64,000 bases of DNA from Nitrospirota bacterium. GTDB lineage: Bacteria; Nitrospirota; UBA9217. A model generated the notes under the pieces. That model was not told where the DNA came from. It was given only the letters and a program-made list of their open reading frames with translations, and did not search any database. Of the stretch, positions 8,066-27,563 are shown piece by piece (position 1 is the stretch's first letter; the number at the start of each line of letters is the position of its first letter). The translations under genes were made by a program, and so were the position numbers. The DNA is taken from NCBI GenBank assembly GCA_963796285.1, contig CAWCKW010000003.1:32001-96000 (forward strand). The letters are read 5' to 3'.

Positions 8066-8147
8066 TTTCTCGCAAAGACGCAAAGGTCGCAAAGGGGTAA
8101 ATCATAAATCCTGCCTTTCTTGGCGCTCTTTGCGTCTTTGCGAGAGA
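8066..8147. repeat. REP-like inverted repeat built from ~9-nt CGCAAAG units
   Basis: tctcgcaaagacgcaaaggtcgcaaag...cttggcgctctttgcgtctttgcgaga. Confidence 0.8.
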
Positions 8148-10106: not shown

Positions 10107-10188
10107 TTTCTCGCAAAGACGCAAAGGTCGCAAAGGGGTAAATCATTAATCCTGCCTTTCTTGGCGCTCTTTGCGTCTTTGCGAGAGA
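10107..10188. repeat. REP-like CGCAAAG inverted repeat (second copy)
   Basis: Same as 8066..8147. Confidence 0.8.
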
Positions 10189-21722: not shown

Positions 21723-22133
21723 TCAGACGCGAAACGGATTGGTGATCCGAAGACGGTTGTTAATAAGCTGACCATGTTGCAAATCTTCCGTGTATAAGAC
21801 GGAACAATCGTTTTCCAGTGCGGCTGCAACGATCAAACTATCCCAATATGAAAATTTGTACTTCTTAGTCACCTTAAGTGCGCTGTCAATCGTGCTCTCC
21901 TTAATGGACGCCAAACGAAGCGCGCGCATGAAACCATGCGAGGCTTCGGAAACCTCTTCGATATTGAGAAGGCGCTTTTGAAGACAGGTGCTTATGAATT
22001 CACTGATGACCTGCGAACTGATGACCGCGTCGGAACTTCCGAGGATCACTTCACGTGCTTTTGCTTTCCGGTCGCTGTCACTGCTTATGAAGTAGATAAG
22101 GATATTTGTGTCAATGAATGCCTTATCGGGCAT
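21723..22133 (-). CDS. PIN-domain (VapC-like) toxin
   Basis: FIDTNILIY...QVISEF...FSYWDSLIVAAALE..LYTEDLQHG..NPF. Confidence 0.93.
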   Translation of the reverse strand: MPDKAFIDTNILIYFISSDSDRKAKAREVILGSSDAVISSQVISEFISTCLQKRLLNIEEVSEASHGFMRALRLASIKESTIDSALKVTKKYKFSYWDSLIVAAALENDCSVLYTEDLQHGQLINNRLRITNPFRV

Positions 22134-22308
22134 GGATTTCCTCCCTGTCGAATTTATATCGTGCAGGGAGCTTTACGTTGAATTTATTAAAAATGGAGTC
22201 GAGTATCGACTCTTTTTGAGATGTCAAGATCGCGACGTGTTCCTTACCGAACATCTTTCTGATTTTATTTACTTCCTCTTTACCTTTCACCTCAACGATA
22301 ACTTTCAT
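22123..22308 (-). CDS. Putative antitoxin of the PIN toxin
   Basis: 61 aa, overlaps the toxin start, ends FDREEIHAR. Confidence 0.8.
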   Translation of the reverse strand: MKVIVEVKGKEEVNKIRKMFGKEHVAILTSQKESILDSIFNKFNVKLPARYKFDREEIHAR

Positions 22309-22469
22309 ACTATACCTGCCTTGTCCAGCAAATTGAAAAGCGATTTCTTAATCTGCCGTTATTATATCCACAATGACGCATATTTCAAGACATTTCTGCT
22401 GCCAAGCATTATGGTTTCCATCACGACTTCGCTACGGGCGCTATTAGCTTTCGGATATCAGCAATGGAT

Positions 22470-22640
22470 TCACTTGTTGACGGTCGCAGTGAAGCAGATA
22501 AAGTTAAAGTAGCTTTCATGGTTGAGGGCGTTCACATACGGGTCTGCCCTGGGGATATTATCCAGGCCGTGGACCTCGCTGATCCAGAGCCGCCTTACCA
22601 AAGGCCTGAACAGAAAGGCAACAACCGGAGAATCAAGTCC
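22470..22640 (-). pseudogene. Acyltransferase (PlsC-like) fragment
   Basis: LFRPLVRRLWISEVHGLDNIPRADPYVNALNHESYFNF (degenerate NHxSxxD), followed by stops. Confidence 0.55.
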
Positions 22641-22661
22641 ACTGTGCCCATTTTCCTAAAG

Positions 22662-22690
22662 AAAAAGCCCCTCGTCTTCAAGGGGCTTTT
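22662..22690 (-). terminator. tmRNA terminator
   Basis: aaaagcccct...aggggctttt hairpin with a U-run on the minus strand. Confidence 0.8.
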
Positions 22691-22721
22691 GCACTTCATT
22701 GGTCTTTGTTAGATTGTAAAT

Positions 22722-23075
22722 TGGTGGAGGCGGCGGGAATTGAACCCGCGTCCGAAAACCGTCAGCCAGAAGCTCATACATGCTTATCCCCGCTTTTATT
22801 GCTCTCGCTTCATCCGGCGCCTTGGGGAAAGCTTCGGAATCGGCCAGCCCGGTTTTTCTTATCTCCCCGCCCCGGACGGCGTCGGGAAGACCAGCCTGGT
22901 TTTTGACATCTCTGCGATCGTTCAGGCGCCAACCGCGAGACGCGCTACCTATTTAGGCGGCGTATGCCAGTTCTTGATTATTGGCAGTTGATCTTTACCA
23001 TGTGTTTAACGAGCCCCATGGTACCTCGGCATGCAACTCCTGACCTCTAAATCCCCGTCGAAGCCTGTCGCCCCC
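22722..23075 (-). ncRNA. ssrA: tmRNA
   Basis: 5' GGGGGCGACAGGCTTCGACGGGG, 3' GGACGCGGGTTCAATTCCCGCCGCCTCCACCA, tag peptide (A)ANNQELAYAA*. Confidence 0.97.
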
Positions 23076-23094
23076 TTTTGTTGAACCGATGAAA

Positions 23095-23196
23095 TGCGAC
23101 CAGAACCGACGAAAGTCGACTTAAAACGAATAGATGTCCTTTCGATTCTCGTCACTGCACGTCGCTTCTCGTCGTTTCATGCCGCTTCATGTCGAT
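23095..23196. repeat. Inverted 10-mer tandem-repeat cassette (CGAC.../...GTCG), no gene between the arms
   Basis: gcgaccagaa ccgacgaaag tcgacttaaa ... gtcgcttctc gtcgtttcat gccgcttcat gtcg. Confidence 0.7.
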
Positions 23197-23209
23197 ACAA
23201 TATATTACC

Positions 23210-23578
23210 TCATTCGTCCTTGCTATTCAATACCCTTTTCACCTCAGCATTGCTTATGCCGGTGATGCGGACGACCTTTTCCCTGGAGGTGTGGCCGGTA
23301 ACGATCTCAACATGGGATCTGGGGATAGACAGGGTATGGGCGAGGAACTTCACTAACGCCTCGTTGGCAGCGCCGTCGACCGGCGGGGCGGTGAGTCTGA
23401 TCTTGAGTCCGCCGCTCTCCATCTGGACGATCTCGTTCTTCGAAGCGCGGGGCTGGATGCGTATCGAGAGTGAAACCGGCGCCTCAGGCCCCTTATTCCT
23501 GGGCAGGTTCCTGGGCAGGCTCTTCTTTGGCGTCACCACCGGCCTCCTCGAAGCTGACCATTTCCCGGTGCATCTCAA
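23210..23578 (-). CDS. yggU: DUF167/YggU family protein (true start uncertain, probably downstream of 23578)
   Basis: IQPRASKNEI...LKIRLTAPPVDGAANEALVKFLA...GHTSREK. Confidence 0.88.
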   Translation of the reverse strand: MRCTGKWSASRRPVVTPKKSLPRNLPRNKGPEAPVSLSIRIQPRASKNEIVQMESGGLKIRLTAPPVDGAANEALVKFLAHTLSIPRSHVEIVTGHTSREKVVRITGISNAEVKRVLNSKDE

Positions 23579-23996
23579 TGACCTTCTTGATGTCCTGCAG
23601 GAAGTGATGCTTCCTGCGCTTCAACTCCTGGATCTCCACCTCAAGCTTCGCCTTCTCATCCTGGGAATTGTTTATGAACTGCAGCCTGCGCACCTCCGCG
23701 TCCTTGATGATGACCTCCGCTTCCCTGCGCGCGTTGTCCTTCTGGTCCTCCATGAGCTTCTGGGTCATCAGCAGCGTGTTCTTGACCGTTTCTTCCCGTT
23801 CAGTCAGTTCGCGCAGGCGCTCATCGTAGGACTGGCGGAATTCCTTCAGCTCCGTTGTTTCCCGATACAGTGTTTCCATTTCGTCCCGCACCAGGTCGAG
23901 AAACACCTCGACCTCGGCTTGTTCGTAGCCGCGAAAAACCACATGGAACCGTTTCTGCTGGATATCGATAGGTGTTAACCTGTTGCCGTTACTCAT
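23493..23996 (-). CDS. divIVA: DivIVA domain protein
   Basis: LTPIDIQQKRF..FRGY...EVEVFLD followed by coiled coil. Confidence 0.92.
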   Translation of the reverse strand: MSNGNRLTPIDIQQKRFHVVFRGYEQAEVEVFLDLVRDEMETLYRETTELKEFRQSYDERLRELTEREETVKNTLLMTQKLMEDQKDNARREAEVIIKDAEVRRLQFINNSQDEKAKLEVEIQELKRRKHHFLQDIKKVIEMHREMVSFEEAGGDAKEEPAQEPAQE

Positions 23997-24033
23997 ACGA
24001 GTGCCTCCTCGGGCGCAGCGCTCCAGTGAGCGC

Positions 24034-24333
24034 TTACCCCATTGCGTTTCCGATGCGATAGAGAGTATTGATCAGCGCGTACTGCAGGAACAGAATAATG
24101 AGCGCGGCGATCAACGGCGAGAAATCAATCCCGACTTTGTGGGGAGGGACCAGCTTGCGGATCGGCCTGAGTACCGGCTCGGTCATTTTCGTCAGGACCT
24201 GCACAATGGGATTGTAGGGGTCCGGGTTCACCCATGAGATAAGCGCCCTGATAATGATGATCCACATGTAGATATTCAGCACGACATCAAGCACCTTGGC
24301 CAGCCCCAGAACGATATTTCCAAATACGAACAT
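24034..24333 (-). CDS. yggT: YggT family membrane protein
   Basis: RALISWVNPDPYNPIV...TEPVLRPIR...IDFSP. Confidence 0.93.
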   Translation of the reverse strand: MFVFGNIVLGLAKVLDVVLNIYMWIIIIRALISWVNPDPYNPIVQVLTKMTEPVLRPIRKLVPPHKVGIDFSPLIAALIILFLQYALINTLYRIGNAMG

Positions 24334-24360
24334 TGCTCCTCCCTTAAAAAACGGACATAA

Positions 24361-24398
24361 AGTCGACAGAGATGCGACAAGAAGCGACGAGAAACGAC
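24361..24398. repeat. Left tandem-repeat arm (CGACAAGAA-like) of the four-helix-bundle cassette
   Basis: gtcgacagagatgcgacaagaagcgacgagaaacgac. Confidence 0.75.
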
Positions 24399-24419
24399 CT
24401 GAACCGGTGATGTTTCCAC

Positions 24420-24794
24420 TTACAGCGTCCAATTCTCTGCGTTCCGACTCATGGAAACCAACCGTGTCAGAATGTGCTCGTACGTTCTATCGAGTTTCTC
24501 CGCGGTTTGCTTGTCGATATACGCACATCGAAGCGCAACTTCAAGCCACGTTTGCGTTTCTGATGCCTCTGCTTCGGCGTCGTTTAATTTGCTCTTAAAT
24601 GCCGCCTCATATCTTCTCTTTCTCCATGCTTCGGCAAGATTCGCGGCAACCGAACGGGACGATCTCCGAATTTGATCTACAAGAGAATACTTCTCTTCCG
24701 AAGGAAATGCTTTGGTCATGGTATAGATCTCCATGGCGCCATCCATCGCATCCCGCCACACGTGCAGTTCTTTATGGCTCTGTATGTTCCCCAA
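24420..24794 (-). CDS. Four-helix-bundle protein (23S rRNA IVP / TIGR02436 family)
   Basis: HKELHVW...FPSEEKYSLVDQIRRSSRSVAANLAEAW..RRY...EASETQTWL. Confidence 0.93.
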   Translation of the reverse strand: MGNIQSHKELHVWRDAMDGAMEIYTMTKAFPSEEKYSLVDQIRRSSRSVAANLAEAWRKRRYEAAFKSKLNDAEAEASETQTWLEVALRCAYIDKQTAEKLDRTYEHILTRLVSMSRNAENWTL

Positions 24795-24802
24795 ACCTCA
24801 GC

Positions 24803-24872
24803 CTTCTCTTGTCGTCTTTGTCGTTTTTGTCGTTTCTTGTCGTCTTTCGTCGGTTTTAGTCGTCTCGCTTCT
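24803..24872. repeat. Right tandem-repeat arm (TTCTTGTCG-like), inverted relative to 24361..24398
   Basis: cttgtcgtctttgtcgtttttgtcgtttcttgtcgtctttcgtcggttttagtcg. Confidence 0.8.
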
Positions 24873-24874
24873 CC

Positions 24875-25685
24875 TTACTTCCCCAGTTCCCTGCTCCTCG
24901 TTGTCGCCGCCTCAACCGCGTTCATGAGCGTCGCGCGGAGTTTTCCCTTTTCAAGGGCATGAAGGCCTTCGATGGTCGTCCCGCCGGGAGAGGTTACCAT
25001 GTCCCTGAGCTTGCCGGGATGTTCCTTTGTCTCAAGCACCATCTTGGCTGCGCCGTACACGGTCTGGGCCGCAAGCTCGAGTGCAAGCTGCCGGGGAAGA
25101 CCCGCCTTTACTCCGGCGTCGGACAATGCGTCGATGATCATGAATACGTAAGCCGGACCGCTGCCCGAAAGCCCGGTCACGGCATCCATGAGCTTTTCCT
25201 CCACGATCACCGCCCTGCCCACTGAGTTGAAGATGCTCTGCGCCAGGGCAAGATCATCGCTCGTTGCGTGCTTCCCTCCCGCAAGCGCTGCCGCGCCCGC
25301 AAGCACCAGCGCAGGGGTGTTCGGCATCACGCGCACCACATGGGAAGTCTCCTTCAATCCCTTTTCGATCTTGGCGATCACAATTCCCGCGGCAATGGAG
25401 ATAACGAGCTTCTTAGCATCAACAGCAGATGAAAATATCCGCGAGTACCCGTTCGACCACCTGCGGCTTGACGCACAGGAGTATAATATCAGCCTCACGC
25501 GCAGCCTCAACATTACCCCTCTGCTGAACACCATAGGTCGTATGGAGATGCGCAAGCCTGTCAACGGAGACGTCGGTGACCAGGATGTGGTCGGGTTTTG
25601 CCGTCCCTGCCGCGATCAAACCCTTGATGAGCGCCTCGGCCATGTTCCCGCCGCCGATGAACGCTATTGTTTTATTTGTCGTCAT
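24875..25685 (-). CDS. proC: Pyrroline-5-carboxylate reductase (one +1 frameshift at ~25433, probably a sequencing error)
   Basis: IAFIGGGNMAEA and VKPQ in one frame. RVMPNTP, SGSGPAY and VTSPGGTT in the next. Confidence 0.92.
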
Positions 25686-25746
25686 GAAACCTCCGGTGAC
25701 TTTCGCTGCTCTTCATTCCGCACTCCAAACTCCGAACTCCGAACTC

Positions 25747-26433
25747 TTAAACCCTCTCCCCGAATATCGCCGTACCCACTCGCACCACGGTTGCTCCTTC
25801 TTCGACAGCGGCCTCAAAATCTCCGCTCATCCCCATGGACAACTCTTTCATGACCGCGTTCGGAATATGCTCCATTGCAATGCTCTCCGCCAGCTCCCGC
25901 AGCACGCAGAAATACGGTCTTGAGTCCTCCTGGTTCTCCGAGAACGGAGGGATGGTCATCAGCCCCTGAATGGCGATATTGCCCAGTTTCGCGGCCTCCC
26001 TCACCAGTGCCGGGGCATTTCGTACGGTCATGCCGGCCTTGCTCGCCTCTCCCGCGATGTTCACTTCGACCAGAACGTTCTGCACCTTCCCGATCTTCGC
26101 CGCCTGCCTGTCGATCTCCTTCGCAAGCTCCAGGCTGTCCACTGAATGGATCAGGTCAAAAAGCTTCACCGCGTACTTGGCCTTGTTCGCCTGCAAATGG
26201 CCGATCAAATGCCAGCTCGCAATACTGCCGAGCTTCTCGATCTTCTCCTTCGCTTCCTGTACCCGGTTCTCGCCGAGGATGGTCGCGCCCGCGGCAACTG
26301 CCTCGCGAATCCTTTCAACATCGACGGTCTTGGTCACGACCACGAGCTTGACGGACGCCGGATCGCGGCCTGCGCGCTTTGCCGCGGCAACGATCCTGTT
26401 GCTCACCGTCTTGAAGTTGTCCGCAATTGACAT
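25747..26433 (-). CDS. yggS: YggS/PLPBP pyridoxal-phosphate homeostasis protein
   Basis: VVTKT, GENRVQEA, WHLIGHLQANK, LSMGMSGDF, RVGTAIFG. Confidence 0.95.
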   Translation of the reverse strand: MSIADNFKTVSNRIVAAAKRAGRDPASVKLVVVTKTVDVERIREAVAAGATILGENRVQEAKEKIEKLGSIASWHLIGHLQANKAKYAVKLFDLIHSVDSLELAKEIDRQAAKIGKVQNVLVEVNIAGEASKAGMTVRNAPALVREAAKLGNIAIQGLMTIPPFSENQEDSRPYFCVLRELAESIAMEHIPNAVMKELSMGMSGDFEAAVEEGATVVRVGTAIFGERV

Positions 26434-26450
26434 AAAAAAGAGACGATTCG

Positions 26451-26775
26451 TCTCGCGCAAAGACGCAAAGTACGCCAAGAAAAGCTTTGAGAACAATTGA
26501 TGCATTCATAAAATTCGGAACTGTCACCGTCTGCTTTTAGTTCAGGCATTTCAGCCATTTTATGAAACTGCACCAATTAAGATGATCTCGTAGAAAGGCA
26601 TAATCTACCGCAGAGGCGCGGAGACACGGAGACACGGAGAAATGCATATCGAAAATAATAAAGATTTTCTCTGCGCCTCTGCGTCTCAGCGGTTAAATCC
26701 GACTGATTTCGTGTTCATCAATTATACATGATAACTTTTTTATGCTCCTCTGCGACCTCTGCGCCTCTGCGAGAA
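26451..26775. repeat. Cluster of 9-mer REP-like repeats (CGCAAAG / CGCAGAG / CTCTGCG)
   Basis: cgcaaagacgcaaagtacgccaag; cgcagaggcgcggagacacggag...ctctgcgcctctgcgtctcagcgg; ctctgcgacctctgcgcctctgcg. Confidence 0.75.
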
Positions 26776-26783
26776 ATAATGCT

Positions 26784-27563
26784 TTATGGCTTTATCATGA
26801 TCACCGACAGCATCCTGCCGGTCCTGCCCTCGGCGCGGAAGGAGTAGAACAGGTCACGCCTGCATGACGTGCAGAGCCCGAGCGCGTGCACATTCTTTTC
26901 AGCCAACCCGATCTGCAGCAGCTCCAGTTTGTTCGCTGTTACCAGGTCCAGGCTCCAGCGGTCATCTCCGCGCGGAGTGGAGACCTCTTTCCAGAACGAG
27001 AATGCCTCTCTGACCCGTCCCATCACCGCCTCGTCCACCTCGTAGCATTCGGGCCCAATGGCCGGTCCGATCGCCGCGATCAATTGCGCAGGTTCTGATC
27101 CGAATTCTTCGTGCATCCGGTGTACGGCCTTCTGGACGATCTTCTTTACCGTGCTCCGCCAGCCCGCATGCACAGCGGCCACCGCGGGTTTGACCGGATC
27201 GAATAAGAGGACCGGCACGCAGTCCGCGGTCTCTACGCCGATGGCGATCCCCGGAACATCGGTAATCATCGCGTCGGCATGCACGGTCCGGACATCCCGG
27301 ACGTTCAGGTCGTCCACCGTGACGATATTTTCGCCGTGCACCTGGTTCACGGTCACCACCCGGTCTCTGCAGACCCCGAACGCGCTTGCCACCGCGGTCC
27401 AGTCATCCGGATGCCTGATCCCGTTGTTCCTTGCGCCCAGCCCGCCCTGCCGCGTGGTAAAGGCATGGAGCATCCCGGTTAATTTGTCGAGCGCGGGGAC
27501 CGAAAGCAATCCATCGTCCCTGACCTTGGCGCATTTTTTATGCTGTGATTTGACGGTATTCAT
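26784..27563 (-). CDS. pgeF: PgeF/YfiH (purine nucleoside phosphorylase/laccase-domain protein)
   Basis: FTTRQGG, QVHG, TADCVPV, HAGWR, GPAIGPECYEV, FYSFR. Confidence 0.95.
   Translation of the reverse strand: MNTVKSQHKKCAKVRDDGLLSVPALDKLTGMLHAFTTRQGGLGARNNGIRHPDDWTAVASAFGVCRDRVVTVNQVHGENIVTVDDLNVRDVRTVHADAMITDVPGIAIGVETADCVPVLLFDPVKPAVAAVHAGWRSTVKKIVQKAVHRMHEEFGSEPAQLIAAIGPAIGPECYEVDEAVMGRVREAFSFWKEVSTPRGDDRWSLDLVTANKLELLQIGLAEKNVHALGLCTSCRRDLFYSFRAEGRTGRMLSVIMIKP

Follow-up and report, generated by a model that had tools for sequence, protein, structure and literature searches.

What is a small gene doing inside a housekeeping operon, walled in on both sides by arrays of very short tandem repeats that are complementary to each other? 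The question is put by a stretch of DNA from a Nitrospirota bacterium (UBA9217; assembly GCA_963796285.1, contig CAWCKW010000003.1, positions 32,001-96,000), which is 64,000 nt long, lies on the genome contig that we call C3 and is referred to throughout as the window. Between proC and yggT it holds a gene of the four-helix-bundle family PF05635/TIGR02436, the cargo gene, framed by an inverted pair of repeat arms; gene and arms together are the cassette. Intervening sequences (IVSs) of 23S rRNA that carry an open reading frame (ORF) were reportedly described by Ralph and McClelland in 1993, and the best reading of our locus is that the cassette has the design of such an ORF-bearing IVS, placed in an operon spacer. 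We also think it probable, with real room for doubt, that the cassette belongs to a widespread class of palindromic hairpin cassettes, in which a promoterless small gene stands between two inverted arrays of short units.

A gene between inverted repeat arms

The cargo gene, found by profile search, has 124 codons and a TTG start and occupies 24420-24794 on the minus strand (coordinates without a contig name are window positions). On its sense strand, the 5' arm (24800-24872) consists of six CGAC cores at a spacing of 9-10 nt, parted by purine-rich spacers of 5-6 nt, and the 3' arm (24361-24406) of four GTCG cores at a spacing of 10-11 nt, parted by pyrimidine-rich spacers. Tandem Repeats Finder (TRF) records the first at 24809-24863 (period 9, 5.8 copies, score 62) and the second at 24364-24398 (period 10, 3.4 copies, score 42). 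The 5' arm is inverted to 24368-24406, with 72% complementarity over 39 nt, 79% over the inner 24 nt and 84% over the inner 19 nt. A sequence-only reading of the locus had proposed complementary arms made of 9-10-mers: the complementarity is borne out by TRF, by the inverted-repeat search and by the duplex energies given below, and the 9-10-nt spacing stands as well, while the constant part of each unit shrinks to the 4-nt core.

How much of the spacer does this unit take up? The 5' arm begins a few bases past the proC stop codon (24875-24877), its inner end carries GAAGG..GAGG, a ribosome-binding-like stretch for the cargo gene, and the 3' arm stops about 27 nt ahead of the yggT ribosome-binding site, so that the unit fills the entire spacer. 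The whole variable spacer, the stretch that differs among relatives, runs from the proC stop codon to the yggT ribosome-binding site (24343-24874, minus strand, about 0.53 kb). Within the cassette we found no transposase, recombinase or nuclease gene, which agrees with the earlier claim that it lacks a transposase of its own, and a scan of the minus strand gave no promoter-like or terminator-like site inside it.

The predicted RNA duplex between the arms is worth -48.0 kcal/mol, compared with -36.0 +/- 4.4 for 500 dinucleotide shuffles of the 3' arm, of which 3 reached it; even after shuffling the arms pair well, since purines prevail in one and pyrimidines in the other. When 551 nt around the arms are folded, 44 of the 95 leading positions are paired at P>0.5 with the final 110 nt, and the minimum free energy (MFE) structure is closed by the arm helix, which is to say that the arms do fold. 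The flank inverted-repeat score of the cargo gene (upstream sequence against reverse-complemented downstream sequence) is 35, placing it 9th among 3573 gene-like ORFs from crude ORF calls (median 15, 99th percentile 23). One feature of the rRNA elements, a long inverted-repeat stem around an ORF with short tandem repeats in the stem, is thus present here.

The cargo protein

The family assignment made from sequence alone is borne out by both profiles: PF05635 matches with 111.4 bits (cut-off 33.8, E 3.2e-32) over profile positions 1-104 of 106, and TIGR02436 with 105.9 bits (cut-off 24, E 1.2e-30). In Pfam the protein matches PF05635 and bAvd only, with no match to a Y1 (HUH) transposase, and PADLOC gives no match. 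The RxxxSxxxNxxE stripe, as defined in the part of PMC3936711 used here, is complete (R44, S48, N52, E55), each residue being present in 81/81 aligned sequences; a basic patch (R43, R47, R58, K59, R60, R61) is, like the stripe residues, conserved in 79-81 of the 81. At the G of the GxxR motif published in the same part of that paper, the cargo protein has Q41. Sequence relatives in the PDB are 2gsc (E 7.5e-14) and 2rld (E 6.5e-11), with five chains per entry.

The protein is kept by purifying selection. Its ratio of nonsynonymous to synonymous divergence against the copy of a related genome (G013, locus L021) is 0.06, in a range of 0.04-0.08, and that of proC is likewise 0.06. The proportion of synonymous differences (pS) in the same comparison is 0.51 for the cargo gene, 0.70 for proC and 0.87 for yggT; by rough binomial standard errors (SE), the cargo gene lies about 3 SE below proC and about 5 SE below yggT, which fits either a cassette younger than the split of its hosts or extra constraint.

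The sequence-only reading had also noted a fold shared with Avd, the accessory protein of diversity-generating retroelements, and part of the published text of PMC10053308 likewise calls the PF05635 family Avd-like. The likeness, a distantly related four-helix-bundle fold with a basic surface, is weak by sequence: bAvd (PF22296) scores 22.8 bits against a cut-off of 40 (E 1.3e-4) and the Avd equivalog (NF033474) 27.2 bits against a cut-off of 80 (E 3.6e-6). Could the gene, then, be a remnant or accessory gene of such a retroelement? These two matches speak for it, but both fall below their cut-offs, no reverse transcriptase is nearby (the sole RVT_1 match of the genome is at C12:725044, on a contig other than the C3 of the window), no template or variable repeat accompanies the gene and its neighbours are housekeeping genes, so we give the idea next to no weight.

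One junction in many relatives

The C-terminal part of ProC was searched against 40 relatives and matched 39 of 41 genomes (the window's own included). Of 30 loci fetched, two (L020 and L025) gave no match to yggT; the other 28 contain both genes of the junction, 21 of them, the window's included, from its own bacterial family (f1) and 7 from outside. The four-helix-bundle gene sits at the junction in 3 of the 21 f1 genomes: the window's own, G013 of another genus (88.7% amino acid identity) and G023 (76% identity, with a TGA nonsense codon and its start lost). All three have CGAC/GTCG arms, with conserved cores and varying spacers, and G013 and G023 have an additional CGAC array downstream of the gene. 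The cassette is therefore a discrete unit, present or absent at one site among relatives, and it is not a gene conserved here without repeats; the small mobile cassette proposed earlier gains from this, as it does from the unrelated contexts and plasmids described below.

What occupies the site elsewhere is almost as telling. The 18 other f1 spacers measure 29-337 nt, and TRF finds tandem arrays in 10 of them, with a different unit in each, and none in the remaining 8. Filler units in f1 spacers include AGTTGGG, GAAGGGT, AACCGTTTG, GAAGCGGG, AGGTCA, AAGGTAAG, CAAAGTT and GAAGGGAA, and several fillers, L019 (-39.9 kcal/mol) and L015 among them, give clean hairpins that enclose no gene. Outside f1, 6 of 7 junctions are just 2-12 nt long. 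The junction thus appears as a site of repeat turnover at which the four-helix-bundle gene is the exception. A suspected degraded cassette in G004 (L009) was rejected, an 11-nt exact match to the 3' end of the cargo gene (E 0.033) being too weak.

Metagenomes add a little movement to the picture. The cassette is nearly unchanged in contigs of three DNA runs from different studies, and one 10-nt unit at 24374, in the 3' arm, is absent from a contig of run X5, a further basis for calling the unit mobile. Other contigs depart from the window at 24342/24344 and rejoin it at 24879, the ends of the spacer (joined in X5 and X6, loose ends in X1, X6 and X17); we read them as relatives with another filler and not as precise excision, since the contig sides are short (18-27 nt).

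The selA-selB junction tells a similar story. There, a paralog of the four-helix-bundle gene with GACAGA-type units occurs in the window's own genome only, out of 11 f1 genomes, and repeat hairpins scoring at least 24, built of other, partly related units, occur in 6 of 10 relatives. A concerted change of both arms between species at one site is visible by eye; the half-split score supports a hairpin in just 6 of the 10 selA-selB relatives and in about 4 of 8 chosen proC-yggT spacers. In the selA-selB hairpins the 5' array reaches into the 3' end of selA (L001/L118, own genome C12:143090-143130; L119-L126), so that the last residues of SelA are repeat-encoded and differ among relatives.

Repeat hairpins across the genome

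Is the cassette alone in its genome? The genome contains 589 tandem arrays of period 6-11, 273 of them outside ORF calls, and arrays that lie near each other form 17 inverted pairs and 1 direct pair. A dedicated scan gave at least 64 tandem-repeat hairpins: 53 with a purine-rich array, a loop and a pyrimidine-rich array in that order (R-loop-Y), 3 in the order Y-loop-R and 8 mixed. The number 64 is a minimum: crude ORF calls place arrays inside ORFs, a strict threshold was set for partners, and the scan missed the window's own cassette and the other cassettes of the four-helix-bundle gene. Hairpins and cassettes have a strong intrinsic polarity, the purine-rich array standing first on either strand; R-loop-Y reads R-loop-Y on both strands, so the count says nothing beyond this. 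As a guess, the polarity spares a C-rich arm first exposure to Rho. That 37 of 40 hairpins between co-directional genes have a purine-rich 5' arm was considered as a sign of orientation to transcription and rejected, for it says nothing about RNA function. Solitary arrays show no preference relative to the strand of flanking genes (59 against 51).

Hairpins built in the same way but without a gene abound in this genome and in f1. The commonest unit, CGCAAAG(N1-2), has 16-110 matches per genome in ten f1 genomes, compared with 0-1 for the reversed control. One sibling of the cassette is a gene-less hairpin of the CGAC-unit family at 23081-23200, between the DUF167 gene and the tmRNA gene, with a predicted -41.6 kcal/mol on the minus strand and a 5' array identical to the 5' arm of the cassette at 27 of 33 positions. 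Of seven TIGR02436 matches in the genome, four have flank scores (36, 35, 31, 31) above the background 99th percentile of 25. An impression by eye that every one of the seven has arms was not upheld: 4 of 7 are inverted by measurement, and TRF reports an array beside 6 of 7, on one flank or both.

A second kind of cargo is found in the same setting. All three GxxExxY loci of the genome (TIGR04256, nucleases of the PD-(D/E)XK group; C12:332565-333037, C12:1321404-1321875 and C1:83666-84121) lie inside tandem-repeat hairpins; their inverted-repeat scores are 33-52, where the 99th percentile of the background is 25. The two intact genes have CGCAAAG-type arms and the frameshifted third has TGACAGGAT-type arms; the CGCAAAG hairpins around GxxExxY genes have dozens of gene-less siblings. 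Arms differ among copies within the genome, which fits poorly with a single transposase acting in trans.

Some further hairpins deserve mention in their own right. A 90-residue ORF at C10:73053-73325, which we take to be GIY-YIG-like from an N-terminal motif, is bracketed by a different inverted repeat (score 48). Hairpins of the commonest family, with CGCAAAGA units, stand in the window at 26456-26480, 8071-8142 (C3:40071-40142) and 10112-10183 (C3:42112-42183), and two of the CGCAAAGA type 2 kb apart have an identical unit and an identical loop length of 23 nt. Two hairpins with CGCAGAG/CGCAAAG arms (C13:289479-289839 and C13:431002-431237) have in common a non-coding loop of about 100 nt, which looks like a repeated cargo without an ORF. 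A hisH-like gene (C3:178332-179021) lies between complementary arrays in the rare Y...R order, and these arrays are probably halves of two neighbouring hairpins.

The same design in other phyla

A scan of one genome per species returned at least 557 relatives, of which we studied the best 80 loci (L038-L117; 56-69% identical). They come from Nitrospirota, Cyanobacteriota, Chloroflexota, Planctomycetota, Acidobacteriota, Desulfobacterota and other phyla. Where at least 60 nt of flank was available, 67 of 78 loci have a tandem array upstream of the gene and 66 of 77 have one downstream, with a modal period of 8 (49 of 67 loci) and a median of 4.4 copies; the 9-10-nt CGAC unit of the window is an outlier within the clade. 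In 29 of 59 loci the two arms have reverse-complementary units, compared with 6.3% of mismatched loci. For the inverted score, 7 of the 80 loci were dropped and the 73 that have 100 nt or more on each side were used; their median is 42, where mismatched loci give 19 and the direct orientation 16, and 30 of the 73 exceed the 95th percentile of a mismatched control that is itself inflated by the G-rich units that many loci share. The polarity is that of the hairpins: of 59 cassettes, 50 read R-gene-Y, none Y-gene-R and 9 otherwise.

Could all of this be nothing more than simple-sequence slippage, with arms that happen to flank a small gene and no functional unit at all? The genome is rich in short arrays, and purine/pyrimidine asymmetry makes even shuffled arms pair well. 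But slippage does not foresee the excess of inverted over direct pairs nearby, the sharing of a unit by both arms of a locus far more often than between loci, the rank of the cargo gene among all gene-like ORFs by flank score or the recurrence of the design around this gene family in many phyla, and we find the explanation scarcely believable.

Arms and gene are inherited and transferred together. In three loci (L110, L113 and L088) gene and arms are common at 83-96% nucleotide identity and the flanks are unrelated. The gene is found on 33 plasmid records, 9 of them conjugative, with arms present in the one record inspected; among 50,697 phage records no match was found at E <= 1e-8.

In one locus (L077) the cassette is flipped relative to two others (L046 and L052) with the same flanking genes, and the breakpoints lie inside the arms. 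Across the 80 loci, the cargo gene points the same way as both neighbours in 37 and the other way from both in 9; in 16 the neighbours themselves face opposite ways, and in 18 at least one is uncalled. One might therefore imagine an invertible switch, in which the arms are recombination sites that flip the cargo and so turn its read-through expression on or off, and both the flip between identical flanks and the 37 sense and 9 antisense loci are what such a switch would leave behind. Yet the inversion is a single case among 80 loci, no invertase is nearby, the abundant gene-less hairpins hold nothing to flip and metagenome contigs over the window show no mixed orientation (contigs drop rare variants), and a switch is in our view very improbable.

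Two ideas about how protein and repeats correspond were also set aside. One repeat per subunit of a pentamer is unsupported, as the number of copies in an arm varies from 2 to 17, with its peak at 4. Strictly cognate protein-repeat pairs were rejected because the link between protein identity and unit is weak; by a strict measure, 13 of 48 pairs at 80% identity or more share their unit.

Comparison with known systems

For published systems our comparison extends to parts of the papers cited and should be taken as limited to them. In the 23S rRNA IVS of Coxiella burnetii, tandem GACAGAT heptamers (three copies, in a number that varies among strains) precede the S23p ORF, and RNase III cuts at the first of the three (PMC4990558). 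The rRNA elements, of Coxiella (helix 45) and Leptospira, are like our cassette in having a PF05635-family ORF in the loop of a long inverted-repeat stem, short tandem repeats of varying copy number in that stem (in the Coxiella IVS, in its 5' part), a sporadic distribution read as horizontal transfer and no mobility gene. They are unlike it in other respects. The cassette lies between two protein genes of an operon and not in rRNA, its unit is a CGAC core at 9-10 nt spacing where the Coxiella unit is a heptamer, and its protein is under clear purifying selection where the Coxiella ORF is described as decaying. Excision by RNase III has been shown for rRNA copies and would hold for the cassette by analogy.

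REP/REPIN-RAYT systems also consist of a small gene flanked by inverted palindromic repeats, the RAYT protein being a Y1 HUH transposase. They resemble the cassette in that a gene lies between inverted repeats and repeat families persist across related genera; the likeness may extend to gene-less copies scattered between genes, of which the CGCAAAG hairpins have dozens in this genome. They differ from it in the cargo, which here is a four-helix bundle (in siblings, a GxxExxY protein of the PD-(D/E)XK group) and not a Y1 HUH transposase, in the arms, which here are tandem 7-10-nt units that differ from copy to copy, and in number, the CGAC family having one gene-less sibling in the genome. Yet another class of intergenic short tandem repeats is formed by the short tandemly repeated repetitive (STRR) sequences of cyanobacteria.

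Heptamer arrays are nearer in appearance. GGGAATC arrays of Xanthomonas, which form 70-75 convergent inverted pairs, and GGGGAYT arrays of Nostoc are described in PMC4692102, and TAACTGA arrays of Beggiatoaceae in PMC4679880; G-quadruplex or regulatory roles have been proposed for them (PMC4692102, PMC4679880). Like our arms they are short tandem units in intergenic spacers, but, in the parts of the two papers used here, no link to a four-helix-bundle gene is made and the terms "four helix," "23S" and "intervening" go unmentioned. In the open full-text literature, of which subscription journals, figures and supplements were no part, we found no description of repeat-armed cassettes of the PF05635 family outside rRNA.

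A possible mechanism and what weighs against it

How, then, might such a unit persist and move? The cassette would be transcribed by read-through from the host operon, and the arms of the transcript would form an imperfect duplex of about 40 bp, cleavable by RNase III as published for the rRNA copies; cutting of this kind would make an insertion between cistrons, or in rRNA, harmless. In DNA, the arms may be kept alike by copying from each other (palindrome correction) and not by selection on RNA pairs. Because they are built of repeats, they would offer register-free homology to sibling hairpins, and cargo could be copied in, replaced or lost by this route. The basic four-helix-bundle protein may bind nucleic acid, most likely the repeat arrays, and thereby aid persistence or spread.

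A good deal weighs against this account of a mobile, IVS-like cassette, and we would rather collect it than scatter it. At the RNA level, folding the full 551 nt gives no advantage over shuffled sequence (z -0.82; 22 of 100 shuffles fold equally well), the RNase III step leans on analogy with the published rRNA copies, and the only RNA run with cover (X17, whose contigs have 7-32 differences per piece from the window) comes from a relative without the cassette, in which yggT and proC are covered and 24388-25119 is not. At the junction, there is no clean filled/empty pair with exact breakpoints, every f1 relative having some other filler, and no target duplication is seen at 24343/24874, where a clean empty site for comparison is lacking. 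The lower synonymous divergence of the cargo gene could reflect constraint and not transfer. Within the genome, the CGAC family has two members, the cassette and the hairpin at 23081-23200 (the sole other purine-spaced CGAC array), and thus gives no sign of recent spread; the other three TIGR02436 matches, fragments with internal stops, do not exceed the background percentile; and the two intact GxxExxY genes, judged by eye from their predicted translations, do not appear to be recent copies of each other. Across loci, protein identity and a shared unit are connected only slightly (median 0.66 against 0.62, a link that 0 of 500 shuffles reach).

One further point against it bears on the level at which the arms are shaped. 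Selection for an RNA stem should make sense-strand G·U far outnumber A·C among the positions that are not Watson-Crick pairs. No such excess exists in the cassettes, where the two types stand at 72:72 (counted in loci with a score of 30 or more, about three in four of the 73), or in 34 gene-less hairpins between co-directional ORFs of the window's own genome, where they stand at 16:21; selection for an RNA stem is thus not visible. The idea of the sequence-only reading that the paired arms could loop the gene out of the mRNA gains nothing from these counts. Unit variants, moreover, are not mirrored between arms (L046 is an example), and these two facts, taken with unit slippage and inversion, argue that the arms are made and kept alike at the level of DNA. 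As DNA repeats do, the arms take up and drop units; they can flip their cargo, and their mismatches have no RNA-type bias.

The same evidence bears on the proposal that the locus is a regulatory element of the host, an intercistronic RNA hairpin for processing, stability or translational coupling, whose ring-shaped protein binds the repeats and regulates its own synthesis in the manner of TRAP, which recognises triplet repeats. There is something to be said for this: in many relatives a repeat hairpin of some kind stands at the proC-yggT and the selA-selB junction alike, purifying selection acts on the protein and its basic stripe is conserved, its solved relatives have five chains per entry and cargo co-oriented with both flanking ORFs is the larger class (37 loci against 9). 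But neither cassettes nor gene-less hairpins have the G·U excess that an RNA element should show, units vary among close relatives at one site from which the gene is mostly absent, copies per arm peak at four and not at five, solitary arrays ignore the strand of their neighbours and cassettes turn up in unrelated operons and on plasmids. We consider a regulatory element unlikely, and return to the mobile hairpin cassette.

How far can that reading be stretched? Tentatively, and with more doubt than confidence, one may suppose that repeat-armed hairpins form a single, very widespread class of mobile DNA, so far undescribed as a class, whose basic unit would be the gene-less hairpin, whose loops could take up cargos including the four-helix-bundle gene, GxxExxY nuclease genes and perhaps a small GIY-YIG nuclease gene, and which would spread or be replaced by homology-guided copying from one sibling hairpin to another, the tandem-unit arms offering homology free of register. 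The 23S IVSs would then be the copies that landed in rRNA, and the four-helix-bundle protein would be the factor of this system that binds nucleic acid.

Neighbouring genes

The genes around the cassette are all on the minus strand and form the row yggS (25747-26505), proC (24875-25685), yggT (24034-24333; PF02325, E 3e-25) and divIVA (23493-23996), followed by the DUF167 gene (23210-23578) and the tmRNA gene (22722-23075; Rfam). The cassette sits inside the yggS-proC-yggT-divIVA part, so the housekeeping-operon setting given in the sequence-only reading is supported; proC, upstream, and yggT, downstream, are host genes outside it. An Rfam scan of 22000-27000 found the tmRNA only, and the cassette accordingly lies between proC and yggT and not in a helix of 23S rRNA.

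In the window proC is in two frames (25419-25685 and 24875-25564), its TIGR00112 match coming in two pieces, with an apparent frameshift at 25432 in an A-run (25432-25435). One base at 25432 is missing from the contigs of all four runs compared, and relatives have an intact proC; probably the frameshift either arose in assembly or is peculiar to this genome. Directly after the yggS stop codon, in the yggS-proC spacer, stands a solitary (GAGTTCG)n array of about 4 copies on the sense strand (25717-25746), for which there is no inverted partner. In one relative (G006, L010) the proC-yggT spacer is filled by a similar unit, (GGGAGTT)n.

What the cassette would mean

Some of this has practical weight for annotation, as arms overlap the ends of genes (the tail of selA) and can resemble CRISPR-like arrays. 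PF05635-family genes have been noted inside cas loci in two reports (PMC3936711 and, in a figure legend, PMC10910872, both used in part), and the CRISPR-like look of the arms may explain them.

The larger consequences are for the family. Should the rRNA copies turn out to be one special form of a general cassette that inhabits operon spacers across many phyla, then the target of the protein (for which its own arms are the obvious candidate), the question whether RNase III renders such insertions harmless and the way in which these elements come and go without a recombinase would all become testable by ordinary means. And if repeat-armed hairpins do prove to be a single class, the PF05635 family, unexplained since 1993, would have its first function.

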